The notes under the pieces: model-generated
What the model saw: only the letters and a program-made list of their open reading frames with translations
Told to the model about the DNA's origin: nothing
Database searches by the model: none
Assembly (NCBI GenBank): GCA_944389535.1
Contig: CALXMS010000001.1
Location: forward strand, 103,202-167,201
Length of the DNA stretch: 64,000 nucleotides
Direction of reading: 5' to 3'
Source of the DNA: an uncultured Alphaproteobacteria bacterium
Lineage (GTDB): Bacteria; Pseudomonadota; Alphaproteobacteria; Rs-D84
Shown: positions 1,390 to 43,536 of the stretch, one piece after another
Layout: every line of letters starts with the position of its first letter
Numbering within the stretch: the first letter of the stretch is position 1
Made by a program: the position numbers and the translations under genes

Positions 1390-2178
1390 CTATTTAGTTA
1401 CGTAACATTCCACCCCATCGGCTTTTGCGTTACGACAAAAACCATTTGCATCTGCTGCCGCATTAAAACCTATACGTAATCTGTATGTAGTTGTACCGTT
1501 AGGTAATACCGCAGCTAAAATCACAAACTGATGACCAGAAAATAAACTCTGATGTGAAGACTGTAATTTACGCTGTCCCGCTTCTGCCAATGCCCGTGTA
1601 CTATAAGATCCGATTTGGGCATACCATGCAGATGCCTTCGGGGCTGTCTGAGTACGACGAGCTGGCTGTTGCACTGCCTTAGCCGCTGTCTTTTTAACTG
1701 TCGACTTTGTTGTAGTTTTTGCTGCTGGTTGTGCCGCAGGTTTATCAGGATTAAATTTTACATCCTTTCTATCTTCTACAACACGTACAGGAACACCAGG
1801 CGTTGCATTTTGCACAACAGGTTGAGGCGCCGCTTGCGGGGCCTGCTGTACAACAGGTTGCGGGTTTGGCGCAACTACAACAGGTTGTGCAGCATTAGGA
1901 TCCGGTGCAGGTCCAACAACCAAAGGTGCATTAGGATCTTCGCCTTCAACGACTACTGCCGGGGCATCCAAATTAACTTCCATAGTGGTTGAAGATTCCC
2001 CCTCAACCATACGAATTATTACATACGTAGCTAATATGATAACCAATACCCCCACCCCCATCAATAGCCATGGTTTTTTGGGGCGAGGCGTCGAAAACGG
2101 TGCCGCTTCGGGTAAAGCATCCATCGTATCAGCATCGTCGTTTAAATCTAATAAGTCCAAGTTATCATCGTTATTCAT
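1390..2178 (-). CDS. SPOR-domain peptidoglycan-binding protein, likely cell-division associated, with an N-terminal TM anchor and a Pro/Gln-rich linker
   Basis: A single N-terminal TM is followed by a long P/Q/A/V-rich low-complexity linker. The C-terminal ~75 aa (AWYAQIGSYSTRALAEAGQRKL...YRLRIGFNAAADANGFCRNAKADGVECYV) match the SPOR repeat pattern. Confidence 0.6.
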   Translation of the reverse strand: MNNDDNLDLLDLNDDADTMDALPEAAPFSTPRPKKPWLLMGVGVLVIILATYVIIRMVEGESSTTMEVNLDAPAVVVEGEDPNAPLVVGPAPDPNAAQPVVVAPNPQPVVQQAPQAAPQPVVQNATPGVPVRVVEDRKDVKFNPDKPAAQPAAKTTTKSTVKKTAAKAVQQPARRTQTAPKASAWYAQIGSYSTRALAEAGQRKLQSSHQSLFSGHQFVILAAVLPNGTTTYRLRIGFNAAADANGFCRNAKADGVECYVTK

Positions 2179-2252
2179 TTGGATTCCCCCATAGTTCTTT
2201 AAGTCTTATTATATCATAAAAAACCGTGTTTTCCAAAGATTATCTCTAAAAT

Positions 2253-2396
2253 TTACTTTGGCATTTGTCCGAAATTTGGCGGTACAATTAATTTATGATT
2301 TTCTTCTACTATTGGTTCTGTCTCGCACTTTGAGGCACATGCCGATAAAAGTATCGGTGTTATACACACTAATAATAATAACATCGCTTTTTTCAT
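2253..2396 (-). CDS. Small putative lipoprotein (47 aa), not in the ORF track
   Basis: The minus-strand ORF reads MKKAMLLLLVCITPILLSACASKCETEPIVEENHKLIVPPNFGQMPK. It has a signal peptide plus lipobox LLSAC. It lies in the 280-nt gap between the SPOR gene and thrS. Confidence 0.3.
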   Translation of the reverse strand: MKKAMLLLLVCITPILLSACASKCETEPIVEENHKLIVPPNFGQMPK

Positions 2397-2460
2397 ATTA
2401 TATCCCTTTGCTTATACATATATTATAATGGCGCGTTTTTAACGCGCCATATTTTTTTAC

Positions 2461-4194
2461 TTACGCCGGCATTTTTACAGCTTCTTTCATCTGAGATATA
2501 AAGTCATCAAGTTTTACAACTTCCTGCTTTTCTATCCCAAGGCGACGCAAAGTTACTGTTTTATCTGCCATTTCTTTTTCACCAACCACCGCAATAATTG
2601 GGGTTTTTGCCAAAGACAATTCACGGATTTTATAATTAACCTTCTCGTCACGTAAATCAGCCCGTGCATATATACCGGCATCATGCAAAGCATCAACTAT
2701 AGCTTCTGCATAATCACGGAACTTTTCAGAAATAGGGGTAACAACAACCGGTTCTGGTGACAACCACAAAGGCAAGTTTCCACCGGTTGATTCTAACAAT
2801 ATCGCCATAAAACGTTCAATAGATCCTAACATAGCACGATGCAGCATAATTGGACGGTGCTTTTCACCGTCTTCACCGATATAAGACAAATCAAATCTTT
2901 CCGGTAAATTCATGTCTAATTGTACCGTGCCACACTGCCATGTACGCCCCAGCGCATCTTTCAAGTAATTATCAATTTTCGGTCCATAGAATGCGGCATC
3001 ACCTTCTGCAATTTCATATTCAATGCCATTTGCATCCAGCGCATGTTTTAATGCACCTTCGGCTTTATCCCATATTTCATCAGACCCTATACGAAATTCA
3101 GATTCTTTACGGGTTGCTAGTTTCATAGAAATCTTATCAAAGCCAAACTTACCATAAATATCTTTAATAAAACGCAACACTTTTACGACTTCGGATTCTA
3201 ATTGCTCTTCCGTGCAGAAAATATGAGCATCATCTTGGGTAAATTCACGAACGCGCATCAACCCAGACAGACTACCAGCAGTTTCATAACGATTAACTTT
3301 ACCAAACTCGGCCAAATACATAGGCAAATCTTTATAAGACTTAATTCCCTGACCAAATACTAACATTCCGCCTGGGCAAGACATTGGTTTTACGCAGAAA
3401 GTTTTACCATCCTGAGTTTTACCAGAATAATTATGTTCACCATATTTAGCCCAGTGACCGCTACGTTCCCATAAAGAACGATCCATAACGGACGGAGTAG
3501 AAATTTCTAAATATCCTGCTTTTTCCTGACGATGACGGATATATTCAATTAATTTACGGTAAATTTTATATCCCTTATCATGCCAGAATACAGCCCCTGG
3601 TGCATAATCTGGTTCAAAATGGAATAAATCCATATCTTTACCTAACTTACGATTATCACGTCCTGCAGCTTCTTCTTGCATTTTTAAGAATTGTTCTAAT
3701 TCTTCTTTAGAAGCAAACGCATCTACATAAATACGTTGTAACATTTTATTTTTCGCATCGCCTTTCCAATACGCCCCCGCAACATTGCGAACCTTAAACG
3801 AATCGCGTGGTAAATCTTTTGAACTTTCAACGTGTGGTCCGCGACATAAATCAACGAAGTCTCTAAAAGTATAAATAGACAACTGCTCACCCGCGGCATC
3901 ATATTCGTTCAACCATTCCATTTTATATGGCTGATCGGCAAAAATTTGTTTTGCTTCTTCCAAAGATACATTACGCTGTTCAAACCTGCCGTTTGATTTG
4001 ATCAGTGAACGCATTTCTTGTTCTATTTTTTCAAAGTCTTCTTCTGAAAATCTGTGTTCAGTATCAAAGTCGTAATAGAACCCGTTTTCAATCGCCGGTC
4101 CCCCAGCAAATTTTACATCTGGATACAGTTTTTGTACTGCTGCCGCCATAACATGCGCCAAAGAATGACGAATCGTTTCAATAGGATATGCCAT
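2461..4194 (-). CDS. thrS: Threonine--tRNA ligase, a short form lacking the N-terminal TGS domain
   Basis: Has the HSLAHVMAAAV (HxxxH) editing-domain motif, the RDNRKLGKDMDLFHF class-II signature and a C-terminal anticodon-binding domain. At 577 aa it is about 65 aa shorter than canonical ThrRS. It begins directly at the N2/editing domain. Confidence 0.9.
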   Translation of the reverse strand: MAYPIETIRHSLAHVMAAAVQKLYPDVKFAGGPAIENGFYYDFDTEHRFSEEDFEKIEQEMRSLIKSNGRFEQRNVSLEEAKQIFADQPYKMEWLNEYDAAGEQLSIYTFRDFVDLCRGPHVESSKDLPRDSFKVRNVAGAYWKGDAKNKMLQRIYVDAFASKEELEQFLKMQEEAAGRDNRKLGKDMDLFHFEPDYAPGAVFWHDKGYKIYRKLIEYIRHRQEKAGYLEISTPSVMDRSLWERSGHWAKYGEHNYSGKTQDGKTFCVKPMSCPGGMLVFGQGIKSYKDLPMYLAEFGKVNRYETAGSLSGLMRVREFTQDDAHIFCTEEQLESEVVKVLRFIKDIYGKFGFDKISMKLATRKESEFRIGSDEIWDKAEGALKHALDANGIEYEIAEGDAAFYGPKIDNYLKDALGRTWQCGTVQLDMNLPERFDLSYIGEDGEKHRPIMLHRAMLGSIERFMAILLESTGGNLPLWLSPEPVVVTPISEKFRDYAEAIVDALHDAGIYARADLRDEKVNYKIRELSLAKTPIIAVVGEKEMADKTVTLRRLGIEKQEVVKLDDFISQMKEAVKMPA

Positions 4195-4281
4195 AATAAA
4201 AACCTTTTTATTTATATAAATAAAATTAAATTGTTATTGATTATTACACTGTGCGGGAAAAACCGCAAATAGAATCTACAC

Positions 4282-4314
4282 CCCCGTGGGGGTTGTTGTA
4301 GTTGTTATTATAAA
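4282..4314 (-). terminator. Structured hairpin downstream of the hlyIII-family gene; possible terminator
   Basis: CTACA-CCCCC-gtg-GGGGG-ttgt-TGTAG forms a nested stem (outer 5 bp, inner 5 bp G/C). The adjacent U-run is weak, and a second small GCGG-ttttt-CCGC hairpin lies at ~4253-4266. Confidence 0.25.
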
Positions 4315-4385
4315 GAATACTACATTTTTATTCATCATAGATGAATGTTAGTACTTAAAAGAAAAAATGTCAAATATGTTTTACC

Positions 4386-5132
4386 TTATAAATCAATAAT
4401 ACAACCGAACAAAACAGCGAAAAAGAAGCACACACTTCCAGCAATTACAAATAAATGCCAAATTGCATGTGAATACTTCATCTTACGCCACAGATAAAAA
4501 AACACGCCTATGGAATAAGATAATCCGCCAGCTAATATAAACCATAACGCCCTTACAGGTATGCTATATAACATTGCCGGTAAAATGAACAGCAGCGCCC
4601 ACCCCATTATCAAATACAATCCTACAATCCATTTAGGCTGCTGTTTAGGATTACGCATTTTTATGATAGACCCCGCTATAACAATCGCCCATAAAATCCC
4701 GAATACAGTCCAACCAATCCAACCACGTAAATTTACAAGCAAGAACGGCGTGTATGTGCCTGCTATTAAGGCATAGATAGCTACGCTATCCCATACTTCA
4801 AAGAAGCATTCACTCTTTTTTCCGATTGTTGCATGACACATAGTGGAACCAAAATAAAGTGTGAACATAGTCAAACCAAAAATAGCGCAAGAAACAATCG
4901 CCCATGGATTCCCCTTTAATGAGGCAAAAACAACCAGCAACGTCAAACCGGCGATTGCCAACCCGATACCTATGCCATGGGTTAAAATATTTACGGCCTC
5001 TTCTGACTTTGTGCTTGGTCTTTCCCAACGAAACAGACCCGTTGCACGTAATATTCGTAATAATCGACTGCCACGCTTATCCGATTTAACCGCCTTTAGT
5101 TTTGCACGAACAACTTTATTTGATTTAACCAT
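4386..5132 (-). CDS. Hemolysin III / PAQR-family integral membrane protein
   Basis: Seven predicted TM helices and the HlyIII C-terminal motif (YSHAIWHLFVIAGSVCFFFAV). The N-terminal ~40 aa is a Lys/Arg-rich extension. Confidence 0.8.
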   Translation of the reverse strand: MVKSNKVVRAKLKAVKSDKRGSRLLRILRATGLFRWERPSTKSEEAVNILTHGIGIGLAIAGLTLLVVFASLKGNPWAIVSCAIFGLTMFTLYFGSTMCHATIGKKSECFFEVWDSVAIYALIAGTYTPFLLVNLRGWIGWTVFGILWAIVIAGSIIKMRNPKQQPKWIVGLYLIMGWALLFILPAMLYSIPVRALWFILAGGLSYSIGVFFYLWRKMKYSHAIWHLFVIAGSVCFFFAVLFGCIIDL

Positions 5133-6705
5133 TTATTACGTCCTTTATACGATTAACAACTCTATCACTTCCCATAACTTGCATTATGGAATACAAGTCA
5201 GGTGTATTTGTGCGCCCGGTTAAAGCCACACGTAAATTCATTGCTACATCGCCATTTTTAACGCCTTTATCAGCAGCAATCGCCACAATTTTTGCCCACC
5301 ATGCATCTTTATCATCACAAATATCAAAGGTTGACAAGAATGTGCTTAATAAATCTTTGTTAAATTCATATTCTTTGTTCGGCACAAACAAATCATCCCA
5401 AAAGTATGAAACTTCCTGTAAAGTTTGTTTCCAAGTTATAAAGTCCTTACGTATACGCTTTGGATTATCACGTTCAATAGCCAAGATATTTTTCAAGTAT
5501 TCTGGATTATCACCGATTCGAGCCGCCCATTGCGGATCATATTCATCTGCCCAATCACGAACAAGTTTTACCAATTTATCAACCGGCAAAGTCCCGATAA
5601 ACTCACGCGCCCACCATTCCAACTTCTTCATATCAAATAACGCACCTGAAATAGGAATCTTTTTTAAACGCAATTCGTAATCCCAGATTGATTTAACCTG
5701 CCCTTTTGATTTTGCTTCTTCATAACCAGACGCAGCAATGTTACCAAGATATTCCAAAACAGCATCAGTCGGCCAACCATCCTGTAAAAAGAACGCAACA
5801 TTAGCTTCTGGGTCATGACGCTTTGATAACTTTCTTTGCTTACCCGTTTCTGGGTCAATCTTATCAATGGTTGATGTATGAATATATAACGGTGGTGTCC
5901 AACCCATCATACGAAATAACTGAATATGTAATGGAAAAGACGGCAACCATTCTTCACCGCGAACAACGTGCGTTGTTCGCATGAAATGGTCATCACATAA
6001 ATGCGCAAAATGATAAGTCGGCAGTCCGTCATTAGACTTAATCAGAACGATATCTTCATTGTTTTCTGGAAACCCGATAGAACCACGTACAGCATCCTTA
6101 CAGAAAATTCTGTTATCCGGATTACCAGTTGAATATAAACGAATTGAGGGTACTTCACCAGCATCTAAACGACGAATTATTTCTTCTTCTGATATATCCC
6201 TATCACGTGCAAATTCCCCATAAATACCAGTTGCGAAACCGGCCGCTTTTTGATTTTCGCGGATTTTTTCCATATCTTCAGACGTTAAAAAACAAGGATA
6301 CGCCAAACCACGTGCCAACAAATCTGCAGCAACACTATGATAGATATCCTTACGTTGCGATTGATAATAAGGGCCGTATTCTGGTATATCATTATATTCC
6401 AAACCGAATCGATGCATAGAATTTTCTATAATTTTAACGGCATCGGCAACCTCGCGCTTTGTATCTGTATCTTCTATGCGCAGCATAAATACACCACCTG
6501 ATTGCCGTGCTAATTTAGAATCTATAAACGCTTGATACAAACCACCAATGTGCATATAGCCTGTTGGGCTTGGTGCAAAACGAGTAACAAAAGCACCCTC
6601 TGATAAATTACGAGGCGGATATTTTTCTTCCAACTCTGCCAAAGTATATTTTGGTCTATTCCCAAGTACACGAGCAATCACATCTGCCGATAATCCTGTA
6701 CGCAT
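5125..6705 (-). CDS. gltX: Glutamate--tRNA ligase (class I; GluRS/GluQRS family)
   Basis: Has the HIGH-type motif (PSPTGYMHIGG), the KMSKS-type motif (KLSKRH) and a long C-terminal anticodon-binding domain. The start overlaps the hlyIII stop by 8 nt. Confidence 0.85.
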   Translation of the reverse strand: MRTGLSADVIARVLGNRPKYTLAELEEKYPPRNLSEGAFVTRFAPSPTGYMHIGGLYQAFIDSKLARQSGGVFMLRIEDTDTKREVADAVKIIENSMHRFGLEYNDIPEYGPYYQSQRKDIYHSVAADLLARGLAYPCFLTSEDMEKIRENQKAAGFATGIYGEFARDRDISEEEIIRRLDAGEVPSIRLYSTGNPDNRIFCKDAVRGSIGFPENNEDIVLIKSNDGLPTYHFAHLCDDHFMRTTHVVRGEEWLPSFPLHIQLFRMMGWTPPLYIHTSTIDKIDPETGKQRKLSKRHDPEANVAFFLQDGWPTDAVLEYLGNIAASGYEEAKSKGQVKSIWDYELRLKKIPISGALFDMKKLEWWAREFIGTLPVDKLVKLVRDWADEYDPQWAARIGDNPEYLKNILAIERDNPKRIRKDFITWKQTLQEVSYFWDDLFVPNKEYEFNKDLLSTFLSTFDICDDKDAWWAKIVAIAADKGVKNGDVAMNLRVALTGRTNTPDLYSIMQVMGSDRVVNRIKDVING

Positions 6706-6752
6706 TTTTTATTTTCCTTGTATTCGTATAAACCGAATTTTATACTAAATAT

Positions 6753-7385
6753 ATGGAAAAACAAGAGATAAGAACATTTGGACGACGTCACGGTAAAAAA
6801 TTATCCGCACGGCAAAACATTTTGTTAGAAAACATATTACCGACAATACAACCTTACGATTTACCGATAAATACCGGTTTAATTATGGAAATTGGTTTTG
6901 GTGCCGGTGAACATTTACGAGAAATAAGCCGGGAAAAACCGGGTAAAATTATAATTGGTGCAGAACCATTTATTAACGGTGTCGCATCACTGCTATCTGC
7001 AATTACAGACGAAAATAATTCGATTCGTTCCGAATATAAAAACATACGCATTTTTGCCGATGACGTGCGTAAATTCTTACGAGATACCGATTCGAAATTT
7101 GAACAAATTTGGGTTTTACACCCAGACCCTTGGCCGAAAGCAAGACATGAAAAAAGACGGCTTTTAAACGCTGATTTTTTGACGCTTCTGTCAAAACATC
7201 TTACACGAAACGGTGAAATTATAATTGGTACTGACCATTGGGAATACTTTGATTGGGTTATTAATCAAACAAAAAAAACACCACTAAAAATAAGTTTAAC
7301 AGACCTAGATACTATTCATACAAGGTATCAAGAGAAAAATAAGGCCGGTACTAAGAACCCAAAATATATGATTCTTAAAAATTAA
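6753..7385 (+). CDS. trmB: tRNA (guanine46-N7)-methyltransferase
   Basis: Has the SAM-binding motif IMEIGFGAGEHL and the conserved WVLHPDPWPKARHEKRRL segment of TrmB. Length 210 aa. Confidence 0.85.
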   Translation: MEKQEIRTFGRRHGKKLSARQNILLENILPTIQPYDLPINTGLIMEIGFGAGEHLREISREKPGKIIIGAEPFINGVASLLSAITDENNSIRSEYKNIRIFADDVRKFLRDTDSKFEQIWVLHPDPWPKARHEKRRLLNADFLTLLSKHLTRNGEIIIGTDHWEYFDWVINQTKKTPLKISLTDLDTIHTRYQEKNKAGTKNPKYMILKN

Positions 7386-8050
7386 ACCCTTATAAAAAAT
7401 TTAAGAGATCTAAGCAAATTTTGATGCATAGCTTCAGTTAATCTTACTACTTGTTCTATACGAGAAAAAATATTGCCAAGTAAAAAATGTAATTGGGGCG
7501 TATATTCATCATCTATAATACTTTCCAGTAATGAATATATACGTCCAACAAAATCGGACTTATCCCCGCTATCCTTAGGTAAAACTAACATTAACCCCGT
7601 AGCTCGTATTTTTTTTACCAAATTAAAAACATTTTCCCAATCACAAAAATTTATTTCATTTATATTTAAACCTATAAACAAAGATTTATTAAAGAACAAA
7701 TCATCTCTGATCATGTATAATTGTGATACCAATTCATTTAAATCGGTCATAGAAACGAAAATTTGTGCGCCATCTGCCCCCTGCTTAAAAGATTGATTTA
7801 TTTCTTCTGACAAATTAGATATATCTTCTATTTTATGTCCATTTAAATAAAAACGCGAAAAAATTTTGATATTTTTATTTTCTAACCATGGCCACATAAT
7901 AGAAACCGAAACAGGCGCAACAGATATTATAGGAATATGTTTTTCTATAGCAATTGACGCCATCCGTGCCAAATCCGTTGGTTCAAGTTCAGAGCCACAC
8001 CAAATTGCGCTTTCAGACACATCTAAAAGAATATCATCCTGTTTCATCAT
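7382..8050 (-). CDS. Hypothetical protein (ORFan; faint aldolase/TIM-barrel-like resemblance)
   Basis: A 222-aa ORF with no recognisable motifs. It converges on trmB with overlapping stop codons (TTAA). The segment HIPIISVAPVSVSIMWPWLENKNIKIFSRF weakly recalls DeoC-type aldolases. Confidence 0.4.
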   Translation of the reverse strand: MMKQDDILLDVSESAIWCGSELEPTDLARMASIAIEKHIPIISVAPVSVSIMWPWLENKNIKIFSRFYLNGHKIEDISNLSEEINQSFKQGADGAQIFVSMTDLNELVSQLYMIRDDLFFNKSLFIGLNINEINFCDWENVFNLVKKIRATGLMLVLPKDSGDKSDFVGRIYSLLESIIDDEYTPQLHFLLGNIFSRIEQVVRLTEAMHQNLLRSLKFFIRV

Positions 8051-8093
8051 TACCCTTTTTACTTTATCACAAATATGGTATAATTAAAACTAA

Positions 8094-9035
8094 ATGAAAA
8101 TACGTATAGATAATATATTATTATGCGTTTTATGGTTACTAGCCGTAACCCTGGGGGCATCTTTTTGGTTTAATACAGTTTTTGGTTTTGATATATTCTC
8201 TTCAGCTCATTGGGAATATATTGCTTTGCTTCAAGCGTCACATTCGCCTATAAAGACCGGTTTTTATGTATCTATGGCGATTACTATATTTGTTGCGATA
8301 TTTGGTTTGTATTTGGTTGTAAGACCCCGCATACGAAAAATCAGACTGCCTATAATGAGGGTAGATATGACACACAACAAAACTACAACCAACATTGAAC
8401 AACATCAAGATAACGTAATCCAATCAAATTCGGATGCATCGACTTTAGATTTATTACAAGCAGAAGAACAAAAATATACCCCTAATAAAGTGCCTTCTAA
8501 TCAATCTAATTTAGCGCGCCCGCCACGATTAACGTTACCGACGATAAATAATAATTTTATGTCTATGCCAGCTGAAACAACAATGTCATCTCACTTAACA
8601 ACTCGCACTACCCCAACTGATGAAGATACTTTAACCATTCAAAAAATCTTTATAAACACCGGTTATACAGTCAAACCTAACGTTACTTTAAACGGTATAA
8701 AAACGGTGTTAATAGCGATTGGTACGAATGAAACAATGTGGTTGGGTTGTATTGGGGTCAAAACAACAGATGTACGTGGAATAATAGAAAAATTCCAGCA
8801 GATATTTTCAGATACCCTGGACGAGACGGAAATATCAATAAACGGTTTTGTAATTGGTGCGCCAGACGCAGCTACCTCTGAGTTTCAAGATATATTAATG
8901 TTTAATACGATTAAAGACTTACAAGATTATGTGCAAGGAAGACAGAATCCGCCTTTGCCAGACGATGACGACGGTATGTTTGAAGCATATTCACAATACA
9001 TAGATGCAGTTATAACCCATATAGGTAAAATCTGA
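8094..9035 (+). CDS. Hypothetical membrane-tethered protein: two N-terminal TMs, a long S/T/N/Q/P-rich linker and a C-terminal ~140-aa globular domain
   Basis: 313 aa. TM1 is ILLCVLWLLAVTLGASFWF and TM2 is FYVSMAITIFVAIFGLYLVV, followed by the RPRIRKIRLP positive patch. A low-complexity TTTN...PTDEDT linker precedes the C-terminal domain, which ends in an acidic patch PPLPDDDDG. It is the first gene of a three-ORF operon with overlapping start/stop. Confidence 0.5.
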   Translation: MKIRIDNILLCVLWLLAVTLGASFWFNTVFGFDIFSSAHWEYIALLQASHSPIKTGFYVSMAITIFVAIFGLYLVVRPRIRKIRLPIMRVDMTHNKTTTNIEQHQDNVIQSNSDASTLDLLQAEEQKYTPNKVPSNQSNLARPPRLTLPTINNNFMSMPAETTMSSHLTTRTTPTDEDTLTIQKIFINTGYTVKPNVTLNGIKTVLIAIGTNETMWLGCIGVKTTDVRGIIEKFQQIFSDTLDETEISINGFVIGAPDAATSEFQDILMFNTIKDLQDYVQGRQNPPLPDDDDGMFEAYSQYIDAVITHIGKI

Positions 9036-9544
9036 TGAAATTTACTAAGGACATGGCAGAAAATCGTTTAAAAGAAATGAATATGGGCGATATGCCGATA
9101 ACTGAAATCAAGCCAACTCCAACAAATGTAGCCAGTGACTGGTTTAAATCATATAAACATTTATGTCGTGAATTTATGCGATCCTTAACCGATTCTGTTG
9201 AGGAACTAGCATTTATGAATCTAAACCAAAATGAATTTATGTCATTGATAATGGGAAAAAACGTTCCTCAAAATATATCTATACGATTTCGTATACCTCT
9301 TATATGGGGCGGAAAACTTGAAATAGATAATTTATTTATGTGTTCGACCTTTCCTTATTCTCAGAAGCTGGACCAATTCATACTAGAACAGTCTGGTTCA
9401 GATAGTATATGGTTACCGAATCCGGTAAAAAAAATTTATATTCAAGCACATACGTCATCTGGTGGTGATGGCGGTAACGCAACAGAAGATCGATTAAGTC
9501 AAATTGCGGCACAAATAGTTGCTGCGAAAGGAATGGAACAATAA
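9035..9544 (+). CDS. Hypothetical soluble protein, second operon gene
   Basis: The start ATG overlaps the upstream stop (ATGA). 169 aa with no recognisable family motifs. Contains a GGDGGNATEDRL segment. Confidence 0.4.
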   Translation: MKFTKDMAENRLKEMNMGDMPITEIKPTPTNVASDWFKSYKHLCREFMRSLTDSVEELAFMNLNQNEFMSLIMGKNVPQNISIRFRIPLIWGGKLEIDNLFMCSTFPYSQKLDQFILEQSGSDSIWLPNPVKKIYIQAHTSSGGDGGNATEDRLSQIAAQIVAAKGMEQ

Positions 9545-9557
9545 GCTGGAAACAAAC

Positions 9558-9992
9558 ATGACCTGTTCTGAATTTATATCTTTAATGGAAACGAAAAATG
9601 CTTTATTTACAGCGGCCGCATCTACGCGGTCAATAATGTTAACTAATTCAGCATTACAAAATATACGTGCGGCTATATTACCACAATTTATGATAGAACT
9701 ATATCAAAGACATGGTGCAATAAATCTTGGCAACGGTTATATTTTTGGTCCCACAGAAGTCAAACGCGGAAACAAATACCCGATACCAAGTATTTCGCAG
9801 TTAAATAATGATTTAATAAATATATCTAAATTACGGGGGAAAACTGTATTTGGTCGAAACGATTTATTTTGGTTTGCGTTTGATTCTTTCGGCACTTGTT
9901 ACATGTTAGATAATGTAACATTAAAAGAACTACGGAAATATTCAGACCCATATCAGTCTCTTTCAGATTGCTTAATTATAGGTGCTTTATAA
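9558..9992 (+). CDS. Hypothetical protein, possibly SUKH (SMI1/KNR4)-like immunity-type fold
   Basis: The track ORF starts at a TTG at 9519, overlapping the upstream gene. The first ATG, at 9558 (MTCSEF...), is the likelier start. Pattern LPQFMIELYQRHGAINLGNGYIFGP ... KTVFGRNDLFWFAFDSFGTCYMLDNVTLKEL resembles SUKH-1 domains (N-terminal LP..Y..F, C-terminal G.d.gG..y.lD). The similarity is weak. Confidence 0.4.
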   Translation: MTCSEFISLMETKNALFTAAASTRSIMLTNSALQNIRAAILPQFMIELYQRHGAINLGNGYIFGPTEVKRGNKYPIPSISQLNNDLINISKLRGKTVFGRNDLFWFAFDSFGTCYMLDNVTLKELRKYSDPYQSLSDCLIIGAL

Positions 9993-9995
9993 AAA

Positions 9996-10199
9996 ATGAA
10001 AAAATTATCAGTATCTTTATCTGGTCATCAAACCAGCATATCTTTAGAACAAGAATTTATAGACGAATTACATAAAATTTCAAAAGCAGAAAATAAATCT
10101 GTTGCATCAATTATAGAAAGTATTGATGATCAACGCACCCCAGAAACAAATTTATCATCTGCCATAAGAGTATGGATTTTAAAAAAACGCTTAGCATAA
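9996..10199 (+). CDS. Ribbon-helix-helix domain protein (RHH_4 family; often mis-annotated as aryl-sulfate sulfotransferase)
   Basis: 67 aa. MKKLSVSLSGHQTSISLEQEFIDELHKISKAE...NLSSAIRVWILKK matches the conserved alphaproteobacterial RHH_4 pattern (KRSVSIaGH.TSiSLEdeFW...NLSSAIRvfvL). Confidence 0.6.
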   Translation: MKKLSVSLSGHQTSISLEQEFIDELHKISKAENKSVASIIESIDDQRTPETNLSSAIRVWILKKRLA

Positions 10200-10201
10200 A
10201 A

Positions 10202-12214
10202 TTAATTTTTATTCTGCTTTGCATACAATGATATTGTGCATATACAAGAAAACAATAGAATAATTATCATCCACGTATCTCGACCAATACTTCTATATGG
10301 CGTTACATGGGCACCGAAAATTACACCATCCATATAACCTGATAAACCGACAGGAATTTCTGACATTACCGCACCATCGGCAGAAATAAATGCACTAATT
10401 CCTGAATAATTTGCTCTAATAATCGGTAAACCAGATTCAATAGCATAACGTCGAACCATGTCTAGATGCTGATAAGTTCCTGGCGTATTACCAAACCAAG
10501 TATCGTTTGTTATATTTATAACAGCATCGGGGTGTTCTCCTTTGGGAACCAAAGAGTCAGAAAAAATAATTTCATAACATATTGCCGGTGCAAATTTAAA
10601 AGAATGGTCCTTTATATTCATATTTATAATTTCTGGTCCGAAGCCCTTTTCTAATTGTCCAGGCGTCGGAATAATATCACCAAAAGGTCTATATTCACCA
10701 AAAGGAACTAAATGAGATTTACTGTATACTTTTTGAATTTCTCCGTTTGACGTTGATACTATCATTGAATTATACATATTATTATCAGAATAAGTCGTTG
10801 CTCCAATAATAACATTATTATTTAATACCTCCGCCAAAGGCATATCATCTCCTTTTAAAACAACAAAAGGATATGATGTTTCTGGAAAAACGATTAAATC
10901 GGGAGCCCCTGTCGAAGAAGCCAAATCTATTAAAACTCTTACATTTTCTGTGGCATTTTGTATTGCTTCTTCTCTAGAATGTGTCGCTTTTTGCACTGCG
11001 CTGCGCGCTGGTTGAACAACCCTTATGATGGGGCTAGTACTTGTGATCTGTTTAGATTTTTTGACATTAATATAACCATAAGTCGATCCAATAAAAGCTA
11101 AAACAAGAAATATTATAAACGTTACCCAGCCTATTTTGCTTTTACGTAAATTCACTAATTCAATGATTGACGCAATTAATCCCAAAACAACAAAAGAAGC
11201 ACCTAACGCGCCCCATAAAGACATAGAATTACTCAACAATTGTGACGGCATAAGAATGTTAGCAATTGGATTCCATGGAAATCCTGTTAACAGCCATTCT
11301 CTGAACCATAATATAAGCACCCATGTTGCAGCAAATAAAAACGCCCTACATGCTGGAAAAGTACGCACACGCATCACCACGACAAAGGGTATGGAAAAAA
11401 CAACCCCTCCTAATAATGCTATTCCTAATAATGCCGGTATAGTCCATATCGCGAATTGAGCAGTCAGTTCCGGAACAACATAAATAGAGTTTACTACCCA
11501 CCAAAACATAGCAAGCGCATATGCTGCGCTAAATGGCAAAATTCTTAAAAAAGCTTTTAGTGTGGTTATATTATGCGTTACGTTTATAGATAACTTATAA
11601 GCGGCAGCAACGGCTATCAAAGTTGCCCACCAAATATGAAACGGGGCAAAACCTAATGCTGCAATTCCCCCTAACAAGGCCATAATTATATACTGCCATA
11701 TAGAATTTTCTTTTATTTTGAAACGTTTTAACCATAAAAATATTTTGTTTCCGGGACAACACGATAAATCGCTGCATGCGTTAGATTCCGCTTTATAGGG
11801 ATTTTTTATACCAATGTTTTTTAAAATATTTATTTCTTTGTTTTCCATTATTTTTGCGTCTTTGTCCCTAATATGGTCATACCCTTGTAAATGCAATACA
11901 CCGTGAACAATCATATGCGCTGCATGATCTTCAAATGATATATTTTCATCCTTGCATTCACGTAAAACTGTATCGAAAGAAATATAAATATCTCCTAAAA
12001 GAATATCATCATCTAATTCAAACGATAACACGTTAGTTGGTTTATCTATATTGCGGTATGTTTTATTTAATTGGTGAATTTTTGCATCATTAGTTAATAC
12101 AATAGATACCTCAGCGTCTTTACCGACATGTAAAGCCGCTGCATTTGCTATTTTATTAAAATCAATCTTGTATTTACGCCAACGTTCATCGTCATAATTT
12201 ATATAAATTTTCAT
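10202..12214 (-). CDS. ybeY/lnt: Fusion ORF: N-terminal endoribonuclease YbeY domain joined to apolipoprotein N-acyltransferase Lnt
   Basis: The first ~140 aa carry the YbeY zinc-binding HGVLHLQGYDH motif. The remainder has the Lnt multi-TM N-terminus and a C-terminal CN-hydrolase domain (PETSYPF ... ICYEIIF). One uninterrupted 670-aa frame covers both. The two are usually separate genes in a phoH-ybeY-corC-lnt operon. Confidence 0.75.
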   Translation of the reverse strand: MKIYINYDDERWRKYKIDFNKIANAAALHVGKDAEVSIVLTNDAKIHQLNKTYRNIDKPTNVLSFELDDDILLGDIYISFDTVLRECKDENISFEDHAAHMIVHGVLHLQGYDHIRDKDAKIMENKEINILKNIGIKNPYKAESNACSDLSCCPGNKIFLWLKRFKIKENSIWQYIIMALLGGIAALGFAPFHIWWATLIAVAAAYKLSINVTHNITTLKAFLRILPFSAAYALAMFWWVVNSIYVVPELTAQFAIWTIPALLGIALLGGVVFSIPFVVVMRVRTFPACRAFLFAATWVLILWFREWLLTGFPWNPIANILMPSQLLSNSMSLWGALGASFVVLGLIASIIELVNLRKSKIGWVTFIIFLVLAFIGSTYGYINVKKSKQITSTSPIIRVVQPARSAVQKATHSREEAIQNATENVRVLIDLASSTGAPDLIVFPETSYPFVVLKGDDMPLAEVLNNNVIIGATTYSDNNMYNSMIVSTSNGEIQKVYSKSHLVPFGEYRPFGDIIPTPGQLEKGFGPEIINMNIKDHSFKFAPAICYEIIFSDSLVPKGEHPDAVINITNDTWFGNTPGTYQHLDMVRRYAIESGLPIIRANYSGISAFISADGAVMSEIPVGLSGYMDGVIFGAHVTPYRSIGRDTWMIIILLFSCICTISLYAKQNKN

Positions 12215-12231
12215 AATCCATTACCTATGTA

Positions 12232-14157
12232 TTAATCTAAATTTTTATCAGATTTTGACAAAAGTTTTTCTTTAATCATATTATCTTTGTCTTGTTTTTT
12301 TATATTCTTTGCGGCATTAAAAAATGCGGCTGTTTTATCGGAATAAATATTATTAATTCTGTCCACATCTTTATTTACAGTGACATTGCCATTTGCAACA
12401 GACAATTTATAATTAGCCAAAGCCTTTTTAAAATCTCCTAGCATTTCATATGCAAATCCGGCATTATATTGCGCCGCGGCATACTGACTTTTATCTCCTA
12501 TGCGATGCAAAATTTCTCTGGCCTGCGCAATGGCCTCTTCATATCTACCTAAATGGTTATACGTTGCAGCTAAATCATTATGTAATAACGCGTTATTTGG
12601 ATACTGCACCAACATTTTCTCAAATTGTGTTGCTGCCCCAAGATAATCTTTTTTAGTATATGCAGCTATAGCATTATTGTATTGTTCGTCATAACCAATA
12701 GTATACGTTTTAGCCATAACTCTTTCTTGCGATTTAACAACTTTATAAAAGTTATCATTATTTAGTTCACACTTACCATTTTGACACAAAGCTAAAACAT
12801 CAGATGGTAGAAAGTCTGCCACTTTTTTCCAATGTCGTAAGCTTTCACCTTTAGCGTTTACCGGATTAAGTATCCATTGTTTAAATTTTATAAAAGTTTC
12901 TTTATTTACTTTTCTATTAGTTATATCACCGATAAAAAACGCTTCCTTCTTTTTTCCCATAACACAAAAAAATTCGTACATACCATTTACTGGACAGCTT
13001 AGCAACATTCCAGGTGTTATATCACCAGTTAATAATCCAGCCTCTAACCAACGGCGCCAATACAAACCTCTGCCGCCAGATAAAAAACCACCTAATTTAT
13101 TTGCTACAACATCTTTATCAGCCCCTTTTAACCAAAATTTCCCGAAAGACGTAGTATCTTGTATAGGGTATCGATCAAATATTTTTTGAACCAACGTATC
13201 AGGTACACCATAACCATACTTATCATATAAATTACGCAATTGTTCAAATCTTTCTTTATTATTTTTGTCTTCAGGATTTTCTATCAATTTAGAGTATGAG
13301 TTATATAAAATAGACCCCATACCCAAAACCTCACTTGTTGAAGTAATATTAACGTTTGTTTGTGAAACTTCATAACAATATAAAATGAAATAAGTTTCAC
13401 TTTCTTCCAAATGCCAACGAGCTAATTCATATGCCTCTTCTGTTGTCATCGGTTTAGTTTTCATGGTAACGCGACTGCCGTCTTTTAACATTGTTGAACC
13501 AAAGCCAATTGTAGGTATATTCTTTGAATCAAGATATGGTTTATGTAGCCCTGTTTGTGGATCGACATGAACACCTTCTTTTGCAATTAAATCCGCAATA
13601 AGAAAAGGCGTTATTGGTTGCACTTTATTTAGAAATGCTTTATAAGTACCACGCGCTTGTTTTTCTGCGGCGCGTTTTGTTCGATATTCTTTATATTGTT
13701 TAACCGCGTCCGGGACATATTCTACACCTGCATAAATACTAAAAGACAACGCCGTTAAACCCAGCAACCATATAGCATGCGAGAAAGAATTCGGATTTGA
13801 CTTTATAAACGAAGGAACGAATTTAGTTTTACCGTCTTTATTTTTTTTCACCTTCATTTCTTGAATTTTATTTTCAATTTGCCGCATATATTTATTATCC
13901 ATTGTCAACCAACGCGCCAACGTAAGTAAAAACTGACTGCCTCCAGCTGCCAGCCATGCGGTTCCCTTTGCTAATCCCAAAAAACCTATTGCAGCATTAT
14001 CACGCAATTTTGGGTAACGTTCTTTAATTCCATCTTCATCTTTTTTACTGCGTTTATCACGAATATATTGTACAGGTTTCTTTTTTTCTATAAATTTACG
14101 TAAATTCGCTGCCACTTGTTCTGGTATGGCAACCTTTTCTCTAAATTTTTCTGACAT
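12232..14157 (-). CDS. Membrane-anchored protein with a GH24 (phage-type) lysozyme-like catalytic domain and C-terminal TPR repeats
   Basis: An N-terminal hydrophobic segment (AIGFLGLAKGTAWLAAGG / WLLGLTALSFSIYAGV) precedes the central LIADLIAKEGVHVDPQTGLHKPYLDSKNIPTIGFGSTM...MTTEEAYELARWHLEE. This fits the GH24 E...D-x5-T(IGxG) catalytic pattern and the downstream tEEAe.LL..dL helix. The C-terminus has three or more TPR-like repeats (YNNAIAAYTKKDYLGAATQFEKML... YNAGFAYEMLGDFKKALANYKLSV). Confidence 0.5.
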   Translation of the reverse strand: MSEKFREKVAIPEQVAANLRKFIEKKKPVQYIRDKRSKKDEDGIKERYPKLRDNAAIGFLGLAKGTAWLAAGGSQFLLTLARWLTMDNKYMRQIENKIQEMKVKKNKDGKTKFVPSFIKSNPNSFSHAIWLLGLTALSFSIYAGVEYVPDAVKQYKEYRTKRAAEKQARGTYKAFLNKVQPITPFLIADLIAKEGVHVDPQTGLHKPYLDSKNIPTIGFGSTMLKDGSRVTMKTKPMTTEEAYELARWHLEESETYFILYCYEVSQTNVNITSTSEVLGMGSILYNSYSKLIENPEDKNNKERFEQLRNLYDKYGYGVPDTLVQKIFDRYPIQDTTSFGKFWLKGADKDVVANKLGGFLSGGRGLYWRRWLEAGLLTGDITPGMLLSCPVNGMYEFFCVMGKKKEAFFIGDITNRKVNKETFIKFKQWILNPVNAKGESLRHWKKVADFLPSDVLALCQNGKCELNNDNFYKVVKSQERVMAKTYTIGYDEQYNNAIAAYTKKDYLGAATQFEKMLVQYPNNALLHNDLAATYNHLGRYEEAIAQAREILHRIGDKSQYAAAQYNAGFAYEMLGDFKKALANYKLSVANGNVTVNKDVDRINNIYSDKTAAFFNAAKNIKKQDKDNMIKEKLLSKSDKNLD

Positions 14158-14536: not shown

Positions 14537-14613
14537 TTGAAAACCTCACTTTTATTTACTAAAATTCATTATATCATAAATAAACATCAAATAAAACCAA
14601 AGTAAAAACAGAT

Positions 14614-18963: not shown

Positions 18964-19030
18964 TATCCAAATCTCCTTTTTGTAAAATTATATCATAAAA
19001 AGACCGAATGAAAAAGAATTAAAAATATTT

Positions 19031-42317: not shown

Positions 42318-43502
42318 TTACTTTTTGGCAAACACCAATAAAGCTGACAAACCTCCGATCAAAGCCGTTACAACCCATACAGCAGAAGTACCGCCAAATA
42401 TAGTTATACATGCAGCGCCTAATATTGGTGCAATTATATTAGGCAAATTGACACTTGTTCTAAACACACCGTAATACTTTGTTTGTTCTGATTTTTTTGC
42501 CGCATCAAAAAACAATAAATCATGTACAGATTCCATTAACGCACCAGACACTTGCCACATAACGAATATCGCCAACAAGGGATATCCTGTTACAAATGTT
42601 GCAAAAGCAGAAAAAACGGCGAACGAAGAAAAACCTATGAATAACCATTTTCTTTTACCGTAACGTCGAACAAGCTTTGCCATTATTTCTGACAATACCA
42701 AATAAGGAATAATACCAAGCGTTAAAACCCAACCCAAAACGTCTTTTGAAAAACCATTTTCTATAACGACGATCGGCACATATAAATATCTCATCGCCCG
42801 CAATGCATAATAGCCGAAATTTACAGCATATGCGCGCGGCATACCTTTCTTTTTAAAAAACGCCAATGTATTTTTCCATAAGAACCGAAAGGTTCTTCTT
42901 GGGCTGACTGGTTTTATTTGTTTATCTTCTTGAATAATTCTAAATAATTTGAATGCCATCCAACCAGCAAGATATATAAGTGCAGAAGCAAAAAAAGCAG
43001 CTCTATTATCAAATTGACTGGCCACCGCTACGGCTATCATCGGTGCAAACAAAGCACCAACGTTCATCCATAAATGATATCTAGAATTTAATCTGGCCAT
43101 ACCGATTTTTCCAGAGAAATCAGACATAAATAATGGTATAAGAACCCCGACAAGCGTTGCGGCAATTCCTGTGGTATAGTCTAATATGATAAAAGTACTT
43201 GGACGTATTGAAAAACTCATCATCGCATAACACACTGCCAGCATCAACATAGAAAAATAAAAAACGCGGACCTTTGAAAATCTACGAAATAATTCATTTG
43301 CGAACAAACCGACTATCATACAAAAAGCCGCATATATACCGACATAAATACCGACTGTTGCAGAACTCATAAAAATTTCTAACAACACAAGAGAGTATAC
43401 CGCATTATAAATACCATCTGCAAACCCGGTAAACAAACCTAGGTTTGCAAACGAAAACCCGCTAACACCGTTTTTTACAGAAATATATTTATCTTTTGCC
43501 AT
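42318..43502 (-). CDS. MFS transporter
   Basis: 394 aa with 12 predicted TMs and an MFS-like loop-2/3 motif region. Substrate unknown. Confidence 0.7.
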   Translation of the reverse strand: MAKDKYISVKNGVSGFSFANLGLFTGFADGIYNAVYSLVLLEIFMSSATVGIYVGIYAAFCMIVGLFANELFRRFSKVRVFYFSMLMLAVCYAMMSFSIRPSTFIILDYTTGIAATLVGVLIPLFMSDFSGKIGMARLNSRYHLWMNVGALFAPMIAVAVASQFDNRAAFFASALIYLAGWMAFKLFRIIQEDKQIKPVSPRRTFRFLWKNTLAFFKKKGMPRAYAVNFGYYALRAMRYLYVPIVVIENGFSKDVLGWVLTLGIIPYLVLSEIMAKLVRRYGKRKWLFIGFSSFAVFSAFATFVTGYPLLAIFVMWQVSGALMESVHDLLFFDAAKKSEQTKYYGVFRTSVNLPNIIAPILGAACITIFGGTSAVWVVTALIGGLSALLVFAKK

Positions 43503-43536
43503 ATCTTATATATTGTAACATAAAAATAGTTAAAAT

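Follow-up and report, generated by a model that had tools for sequence, protein, structure and literature searches.

A chromosomal operon with probable ancestry in a nuclease toxin/SUKH immunity cassette, conserved in Enterousia-like Alphaproteobacteria

Introduction

Toxin-immunity and defence cassettes are usually viewed as mobile accessory genes with a fast turnover. If an operon with the look of such a cassette lies among the housekeeping genes of a gut bacterium, is it an active weapon or has it become something else? The question is raised by four genes, ORF1 to ORF4 (positions 8094 to 10199), in a stretch of 64,000 nucleotides, here called the window, from contig CALXMS010000001.1 of an uncultured, Candidatus Enterousia-like gut alphaproteobacterium of the order Rs-D84. 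Relatives within Rs-D84 have genomes of less than approximately 1 Mb, lack the tricarboxylic acid (TCA) cycle and respiration, and are supposed to depend on partners (PMC12306168). The genes of the locus are:

6753..7385: trmB, the flank on the A222 side
7382..8050, minus strand: A222, 222 aa
8094..9035, plus strand: ORF1, 313 aa
9035..9544, plus strand: ORF2, 169 aa
9558..9992, plus strand: ORF3, 144 aa counted from the ATG, with an alternative TTG at 9519
9996..10199, plus strand: ORF4, 67 aa, ribbon-helix-helix protein of family RHH_4, last gene of the operon
10202..12214, minus strand: ybeY-lnt fusion, the flank after ORF4

ORF1 and ORF2 are joined by an ATGA overlap, and gaps of 13 nt and 3 nt separate ORF2 from ORF3 and ORF3 from ORF4. 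ORF4 and ybeY-lnt converge, with 2 nt between ORF4 and the ybeY-lnt stop codon. A first-pass annotation, made from the letters alone, had read the operon as a toxin/immunity, contact-dependent inhibition or anti-phage module. With regard to ancestry this reading has held up, since ORF2 is HNH-derived by sequence, ORF3 belongs to the SUKH superfamily and ORF1 is predicted to carry a restriction-endonuclease (REase) fold. It fails as a description of an active, variable or mobile conflict island, because the locus is syntenic in 80/80 relatives and the catalytic residues are gone. In other words, a toxin/immunity ancestry of the operon is supported by sequence comparison, while the reading as an active polymorphic-toxin or defence island lacks support. 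Most likely the operon encodes an exapted, non-catalytic, membrane-tethered protein complex.

ORF2 and the HNH nucleases

ORF2 is predicted to be a soluble protein with the following parts:

N-terminal part: helical
Residues 79-117 (nt 9269-9385): degenerate HNH core (beta-beta-alpha), with R84-F85 where the catalytic His-His stands
Residues 143-156 (nt 9461-9502): invariant, family-specific C-terminal motif GGDGGNATEDRLSQ, followed by a terminal helix

By eye the conserved core IRFRIPLxWGGKLExDNLFMC resembles an HNH motif. ORF2 itself has no Pfam HNH match, and its AlphaFold2 (AF2) model (pLDDT 85.7), which shows a beta-hairpin and a helix at residues 81-117, gave weak fold-search scores. Residues ~45-135 match the C-terminus of a 353-aa plasmid 'HNH endonuclease' with 34% identity (tblastn E 3e-3 in 7.3 Gb of plasmids, pairwise BLASTP 3e-10, hhalign E 2.8e-5), and this plasmid protein passes Pfam HNH with 26.4 bits against a cut-off of 21.4. 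It is found on 432 large conjugative IncHI2-type enterobacterial plasmids, where a 'YrhA family protein' starts 10 bp after it (WP_011152987.1 / WP_000654195.1). In these plasmids, for example pUTME-9-1 (L087, 3230-4807), the HNH and YrhA genes belong to the transfer region and are flanked by a lytic transglycosylase/HAD protein and by TraG-N. The plasmid HNH protein and Escherichia coli YhhZ ('putative endonuclease') share 47% identity over 234 residues, and in E. coli K-12 yrhA overlaps and follows yhhZ. A direct comparison of the ORF2 profile with YhhZ gave an E-value of 0.11 in the same register; phage matches for ORF2 were not found.

In the alignment of the ORF2 family with the HNH proteins G74, P78, G92, G93 and N99 are invariant, and ORF2 shares these residues and a P-x-P-x-x-x-IY tail with the YhhZ-type toxin domain. 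Where the toxin has VHHK, window ORF2 has IRFR and its relatives have VRLR, VKFR, IMFK or VMLK; the helix His of the toxin (PYH) aligns with a variable S/H/Y/Q. Not one His is conserved throughout the ORF2 family, and the catalytic general-base His with a metal-ligand His/Asn was not found there. Unlike the C-terminal domain of YhhZ (YhhZ-CT), ORF2 has neither Hcp nor another N-terminal delivery domain, and it adds the conserved C-terminal motif and helix. ORF2 is thus homologous to the HNH deoxyribonuclease (DNase) toxin domain but has lost both the catalytic His-His dyad and the helix His. The 'small partner' of the first-pass annotation turns out to have toxin affinity, being related by sequence to the HNH DNase domain found ahead of YrhA. 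YhhZ-type proteins are probably the type VI secretion system 'Hcp-ET1' HNH-DNase effectors (see the review PMC6099711).

ORF3 and the SUKH superfamily

The first-pass annotation had compared ORF3 loosely with the SUKH (SMI1/KNR4) pattern. Window ORF3 reaches 17.9 bits against NCBIfam YrhA (NF038335; cut-off 55, E 0.0022), which sets it apart from YrhA proper, and 12.7 bits against Pfam SMI1_KNR4 (PF09346; cut-off 25.4, E 0.2). Its orthologues fare better: 37/41 match NCBIfam YrhA near end to end (best E 6.4e-10, all below the cut-off), 11/41 weakly match Pfam SMI1_KNR4 and 3 match SUKH_6. An ORF3 profile retrieved just 48 proteins from 1.84e9 representatives. The remote matches of this profile, P0400, P0404, P0405 and P0406 (E 1e-8 to 8e-5), score above the YrhA cut-off. 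One of them, P0404, clears the Pfam thresholds for SMI1_KNR4 (35.1 bits) and SUKH_6 (29.1 bits) as well. The profile did not match the single plasmid YrhA sequence significantly, so that the link runs via the NCBIfam model and intermediate sequences only. These matches place ORF3 in the SUKH superfamily, probably nearest to the YrhA family although below its curated threshold, and at the superfamily level the earlier call was right. A literature search on YrhA and SUKH returned nothing relevant.

Gene order points in the same direction. ORF3 starts 13 nt after HNH-derived ORF2, and the same order, an HNH-type domain followed by YrhA/SUKH, occurs in E. coli, on the IncHI2 plasmids, in an alphaproteobacterial secretion cluster (L094, see below) and on a metagenomic contig (L098) where P0404 is preceded by a protein ending ...WQIHHKMPL...NEPYH. 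According to the literature, SUKH proteins confer immunity to HNH and REase toxins, and some of these toxins have N-termini with two transmembrane (TM) segments (PMC3113570). ORF3 would descend from the immunity protein that accompanied the HNH domain. The ORF2-ORF3 locus differs from the YhhZ-CT/YrhA type in being chromosomal, fixed and clade-wide; the latter is borne by plasmids or islands.

It might be thought that the likeness to nucleases and SUKH proteins is due to chance or to the reuse of folds, and that the genes form an ordinary lineage-specific housekeeping operon without any ancestry in conflict systems. The strict synteny, purifying selection and reduced genome described below would suit this explanation, and direct curated-family matches of ORF1 to ORF3 are sub-threshold at best, with weak fold-search scores for ORF2. 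However, ORF2 matches a Pfam-positive HNH protein by sequence in the correct register, and hhalign aligns it with the secretion-linked homologue of L094 at a probability of 94.9%. Moreover, the gene after the HNH protein is YrhA, the family that ORF3 resembles, and an adjacency conserved on both sides makes chance very unlikely. We therefore regard this explanation as highly improbable.

ORF1, a membrane protein with a tethered domain

ORF1 has the following parts:

Residues ~7-27 and ~56-77 (nt 8112-8174 and 8259-8324): conserved TM hairpin of two TM segments
After TM2: basic juxtamembrane sequence RPRIRKIR
Residues ~88-141 (nt 8355-8516): variable tether rich in P/T/A/Q/S
Residues 142-146 (nt 8517-8531): invariant RPPRL motif
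Residues 176-313 (nt 8619-9032): acidic C-terminal domain with a PD-(D/E)xK-like fold

The anatomy agrees with the first-pass annotation, which had noted two TM segments, a long flexible tether rich in S/T/N/Q/P and a C-terminal domain of ~140 aa that ends in an acidic patch. The best-conserved part consists of the N-terminal ~85 residues, that is the two hydrophobic segments, a conserved 28-residue loop between them and RPRxRKIRLP. The linker varies from 29 to 74 aa across relatives (P 17%, T 16%, A 11%, Q 9%, S 8%) and ends at RPPRL. ORF1 is probably an inner-membrane protein with both termini inside, and by the positive-inside rule its C-terminal domain would be cytoplasmic.

In an AF2 model of residues 138-313 (pLDDT 83.7) the order of elements is alpha-beta-beta-beta-alpha-beta, and the model predicts the REase (PD-(D/E)xK) core fold for the C-terminal domain. 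Its identity to PD-(D/E)xK nucleases (N.BspD6I, NucS, AF1548, the FokI cleavage domain, VRR-NUC, YraN) is 4-14%. In contrast to these enzymes the domain lacks the catalytic D and K, is strongly acidic (pI 4.2, net charge -12) and membrane-tethered, and matches no sequence family. In the beta2-beta3 hairpin, xxTxLxAIGTNExLWIG, E213 alone is invariant; the D expected at beta2 and the K expected at beta3 are both absent, and the catalytic D...(D/E)xK motif is missing from the domain across the clade. ORF1-like proteins of deeper lineages keep D and E in the hairpin, without the K.

Among the candidates that were discarded, an identity of ORF1 as PycTM (Pfam E 0.12; PADLOC E 0.027) goes back to short matches of TM segments and is not meaningful. 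A NERD domain in the ORF1-like proteins of deeper lineages lacks Pfam support, and the N-terminus of the plasmid HNH protein proved unrelated to ORF1 on comparison. PDB profile searches with ORF1, ORF2, ORF3 and A222 gave no significant match, and plasmid matches were found for none of the ORF1 C-terminal domain, ORF3 and A222. That ORF1 and ORF2 match no housekeeping family, as had been stated, agrees with our searches of Pfam, NCBIfam, PADLOC and PHROGs, in which no curated family covered ORF1, ORF2 or A222.

Conservation, synteny and selection

One genome per GTDB species was scanned, and a relative of ORF1 was present in 154 species. The loci studied are the best 80 of these 154, and their genomes are named Candidatus Enterousia or unclassified Alphaproteobacteria. 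The order hlyIII(-), gltX(-), trmB(+), A222(-), ORF1, ORF2, ORF3, RHH_4 (all +), ybeY-lnt(-) is found in 80/80 loci. The ATGA overlap of ORF1 and ORF2 is present in 69/80, with gaps of ~0-25 nt between ORF2 and ORF3 and of ~0-8 nt between ORF3 and ORF4. The coordinates, strand order, ATGA overlap and close spacing reported for the window, and its position between trmB and ybeY-lnt, are therefore not peculiar to one genome: the tight spacing holds over 80 species, and a gene-neighbourhood comparison, as had been proposed, finds the trio together in every locus. Protein lengths are uniform across loci. An apparent fusion of ORF2 and ORF3 in two loci (L049 and L066) is spurious, a TAA stop dividing the two ORFs.

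The description of the proteins as ORFans does not stand. Clustering at 90% identity gave at least 149 full-length homologue clusters for ORF1 (down to 38% identity), 725 for ORF2 and 697 for ORF3, all from gut metagenomes or metagenome-assembled genomes of 'Alphaproteobacteria bacterium'. Median identity to the window in the 80 loci is 45% for ORF1, 62% for ORF2, 56% for ORF3, 68% for ORF4 and 45% for A222, compared with 70% for trmB and 57% for ybeY-lnt. In 132 species pairs dN/dS is 0.155 for ORF1, 0.104 for ORF2, 0.136 for ORF3, 0.123 for ORF4 and 0.26 for A222, next to 0.115 for trmB, 0.19 for ybeY-lnt and 0.076 for gltX; these ratios are rough because dS is saturated for the module genes. 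The ORFs are thus real and selected: ORF1 to ORF4 evolve under purifying selection like their housekeeping neighbours, and each of the 80 species examined has inherited a single, syntenic copy of the module vertically. The first-pass annotation had regarded a lack of SUKH or toxin affinity and a conserved operon across related genomes as signs that its theory was wrong; the affinity is present, and so is the conserved operon.

Within the species of the window the picture is different in scale. Contigs of the same species (L002-L006) differ by only 0-2 nucleotides in ORF1 to ORF4, so that within-species dN/dS carries no information, while the flanks diverge much more (dS 0.19 for trmB in L004, 0.03-0.06 for ybeY-lnt and 0.08 for the TPR gene next to it). 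This trough of diversity at 8094..10199 could reflect a recent sweep or recombination.

Is the module an active toxin system?

An active toxin-immunity, addiction or abortive-infection module would require that ORF1 and/or ORF2 are toxic by non-canonical or non-nuclease means and that ORF3 neutralises them, with RHH_4 as autoregulator and death of the cell upon loss of the genes. Such a system would account for the ancestry in an HNH toxin and SUKH immunity protein together with an REase fold in ORF1, for the tight coupling of the genes and for an RHH gene at the end of the operon. It also fits the role of SUKH proteins as immunity against HNH and REase toxins, some with two-TM N-termini (PMC3113570). 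Like the SUKH-associated polymorphic nuclease toxins (Zhang, Iyer & Aravind 2011, PMC3113570; 2012, PMC3482391) the locus has a SUKH protein beside HNH/EndoVII and REase folds, and the two-TM N-terminus and nuclease-fold C-terminus of ORF1 resemble the architectures of such toxins.

The resemblance ends there. In contrast to these toxins the module shows no C-terminal polymorphism, no orphan cassette, no secretion system within ~10 kb and no catalytic residues, and it is vertical in at least 80 species. The variable C-terminal domains or cassettes and the secretion linkage of polymorphic toxins were looked for; the domains are orthologous in 80/80 loci, and secretion genes are absent within ~10 kb. 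The HH dyad and helix His are gone from all orthologues and from the deep lineages, D...ExK is absent, and both the ORF1 domain and ORF2 are acidic. Nor is there patchiness: all 80 loci are syntenic and the 'toxin' genes have housekeeping-like dN/dS, whereas addiction modules normally decay by toxin-inactivating mutations over such divergence. PADLOC lends no support either, with no defence-system match besides the weak, TM-driven PycTM match of ORF1 (E 0.027). We consider an active module unlikely.

Deeper lineages and a pair linked to type IV secretion

The genomic contexts of remote ORF3 homologues open a view on deeper lineages:

L092/L093, a 238-kb alphaproteobacterial contig: A222-like gene (-), ORF1-like (349 aa), ORF2-like (172 aa), ORF3-like, ybeY-lnt, miaB
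L097: A222-like gene, ORF1-3 and RHH_4, between rpsT and leuS
L096: ORF1-3 and RHH_4, beside AsmA
L094/L095, an alphaproteobacterial type IV secretion system (T4SS) cluster: 319-aa protein, then a bona fide YrhA, between VirD4/TraG and VirB8-VirB9

L092/L093 has a different left flank and lacks RHH_4; its ORF2-like protein has KFR in place of the dyad and the tail GGNSTSDRMS. Because the module recurs with other flanks in L092, L096 and L097, A222, ORF1-3 and usually RHH_4 would be functionally linked. The true start of the ORF1-like gene in L097 is probably upstream of the one given by the gene caller (4376): with the in-frame ATG near 4322, which lies 7 nt after TGATATAAT, the conserved first TM segment is restored. 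In L096 a 921-aa Lys/Asp/Asn-rich protein without a family match (1687-4452) directly precedes the ORF1-like gene and overlaps its start; possibly the module has an additional component in this lineage.

In the L094 cluster (3907-10142), and likewise in L095, the 319-aa protein is Pro/Ala-rich. By hhalign its C-terminus resembles ORF2 (probability 94.9%, E 4.5e-8); the HH dyad is again absent, so that even T4SS-linked HNH-like/YrhA pairs can be without it. Judged from these sequences, the disarmed HNH/YrhA pair seems to predate Enterousia.

The L094 locus suggests a further explanation, namely that the module is an accessory of type IV secretion in which ORF2, once an effector, is secreted or translocated as a substrate, with ORF3 acting as chaperone or immunity protein and ORF1 as a membrane-tethered platform for recruitment. 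The nearest relative of the pair outside the clade does lie between VirD4/TraG and VirB8-VirB9, also without the HH dyad, the intact IncHI2 pair is situated in a transfer region by TraG-N and a lytic transglycosylase, and the invariant C-terminal motif and helix of ORF2 could serve as a recognition signal. Against this, no T4SS gene occurs within ~10 kb of the module in the Enterousia contigs, L092, L096 or L097, where the neighbours are housekeeping genes, and the T4SS-linked locus contains nothing that corresponds to ORF1 or A222. A T4SS accessory is, in our opinion, about as unlikely as an active toxin module.

ORF4, the intergenic spacer and A222

That ORF4 is an RHH_4 DNA-binding protein, as predicted, is borne out by Pfam (PF13467, residues 2-63 of 67, E 9.5e-21, 74.1 bits against a cut-off of 25). 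It is 57-83% identical over 79 loci, 0-8 nt past ORF3. Full-length relatives with 35-47% identity occur in Sinorhizobium, Paracoccus and Sphingomonads, where they follow a DUF4169 gene. Since its relatives pair with DUF4169 elsewhere, ORF4 would be an ancient alphaproteobacterial gene and not a cassette-specific regulator, which overturns the idea that it is the module's own tiny regulator. In S. meliloti the RHH_4 gene precedes AsmA, and in L096 RHH_4 is likewise followed by AsmA. Compared with the DUF4169 and RHH_4 pair of S. meliloti and Paracoccus, of which ORF4 is an orthologue-level relative, ORF1-3 hold here the upstream place of DUF4169. A literature search on PF13467 found nothing relevant.

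The spacer between A222 and ORF1 contains these elements:

8051..8093: candidate bidirectional promoter, 43 bp between A222 and ORF1
8076-8084, plus strand: extended -10 TGGTATAAT, 9 nt before the ORF1 ATG
8069-8061, minus strand: mirrored TGATAAAGT, for A222

The spacer measures 43-44 bp in 71/79 loci and is near invariant, CTTTTTACTTTATCAYAAATATGnTAYAAT followed by 7-9 nt to the ORF1 ATG, despite saturated synonymous sites. The motif is unique in the window, and in the distant L092 and L097 TGnTAYAAT also lies 7 nt before the ORF1 ATG. We infer an extended -10 bidirectional promoter for A222 and ORF1; TGGTATAAT and TGATAAAGT form an imperfect inverted repeat which is a candidate RHH operator. 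Because the predicted extended -10 is so close to the ATG, the ORF1 mRNA would be leaderless or nearly so. Further TGnTAYAAT sites, at 2208-2216(-), 14568-14576(-), 18987-18995(-) and 43512-43520(-), stand just upstream of several genes, and one of them precedes the ATG of 42318..43502 by just ~10 nt. mRNAs with a short leader or none may be frequent in the source organism.

The gene at 7382..8050 had been regarded as an ORFan convergent to the operon. The ORF is present, but A222 is no ORFan: it is part of the conserved module and divergent from ORF1, which it adjoins in 79/80 loci with 36-62% identity. It is also kept in the distant L092 (26% identity, E 2e-25) and L097 despite other flanks. 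A222 is predicted to be soluble and acidic (pI 4.9), and no Pfam, NCBIfam or PDB profile matched it. A DeoC/TIM-barrel suggested by an impression of its sequence pattern was dropped after the PDB profile search and Pfam found nothing.

Neighbourhood of the module

The genes up to ~10 kb around the module are housekeeping genes, and the module has a GC content like its surroundings. The absence of a secretion system, phage or insertion sequence (IS) nearby had been correctly claimed: no tRNA, IS-like repeat, phage or secretion gene was found within ~10 kb of the module. An Rfam scan and a repeat search revealed neither an RNA element nor a mobile-element boundary or meaningful repeat, and the window contains no paralogues of the module genes.

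On the ORF4 side, ybeY (endoribonuclease) and lnt (apolipoprotein N-acyltransferase) form a single 670-aa ORF (Pfam YbeY, LNT_N and CN_hydrolase). This fusion is retained in 80/80 related loci and also in the distant L091 and L092 (597-626 aa). The next gene (12232..14157, minus strand) encodes a 641-aa protein with a weak phage-lysozyme match and C-terminal tetratricopeptide (TPR) repeats. Its conservation is much the poorest among the neighbours and sets it apart from the rigid module: identity is 23-68%, and the gene is truncated or missing in many loci.

Proposed function

If the module is neither a weapon nor a secretion accessory, how might its proteins work together? In the exapted complex that we favour, ORF1 would be an inner-membrane anchor from which the acidic, REase-derived domain extends into the cytoplasm on its flexible tether. 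ORF2 and ORF3 would have kept the mutual binding of a toxin and its immunity protein. Translational coupling would keep their synthesis in step with that of ORF1, on whose domain they may dock to give a membrane-associated complex. RHH_4, the sole likely DNA binder, would autoregulate the invariant 43-bp bidirectional promoter. Such a complex would be a scaffold or signalling device rather than a nuclease weapon.

The charges of the proteins are in keeping with this. Toxin pairs usually combine a basic DNase with an acidic immunity protein. Here the ORF1 domain and ORF2 (pI 5.4) are acidic and ORF3, like the RHH_4 protein, is mildly basic; this reverse of the usual pairing argues that DNA binding has been lost. 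Catalytic residues are missing in all ORF1 and ORF2 orthologues and in the ORF2-like proteins of deeper lineages. A precedent for a SUKH protein that serves a membrane protein in a housekeeping role other than immunity is Syd (SUKH-2), which is cytoplasmic and binds the membrane protein SecY (PMC3113570). This is an analogy only, as ORF3, unlike Syd, is nearer to YrhA/SUKH-1 and no SecY link was seen.

There are also points that weigh against an exapted complex. Non-canonical catalysis is possible, to judge from the residues present, via R84, R86, N99 and D113 of ORF2 or K194, E213, D240 and D258 of ORF1, and universal retention could result from addiction. RHH_4 is missing from the L092 module, so its regulatory role may be incidental, and the position of the ORF2-like/YrhA pair of L094 inside a T4SS cluster hints at a role related to secretion. 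With these points in mind, we see roughly even chances that the vertically inherited module derives from a cassette of the YhhZ-CT (HNH DNase)/YrhA (SUKH) type and was converted to a non-catalytic role. A more far-reaching version, which we put forward tentatively and hold to be rather less probable, is that a disarmed DNase-toxin/SUKH cassette was exapted together with the tether, A222 and RHH_4 into an indispensable membrane complex, kept across a whole order of partner-dependent bacteria with genomes of ~1 Mb. If true, this would be a case of domestication of bacterial toxin-immunity genes into core cell biology, analogous to the recruitment of SUKH domains in eukaryotes.

Implications

We classify the module as a derivative of a known type which is nevertheless new: domesticated, nuclease-dead, joined to a tethered REase-fold protein, A222 and RHH_4, and fixed in a reduced-genome lineage. 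For annotation it calls for caution, since pipelines based on SUKH and HNH matches would call such loci active toxin systems. The locus also gives the widespread alphaproteobacterial RHH_4 a first functional context. An HNH/SUKH pair and an REase-fold domain without catalytic residues are kept here like housekeeping genes, in genomes that shed most non-essential functions, and what disarmed toxins do thereby becomes a directly testable question. The module defines four uncharacterised families (A222, ORF1, ORF2 and the ORF3 type) which are probably important for abundant uncultured bacteria of the human and animal gut.

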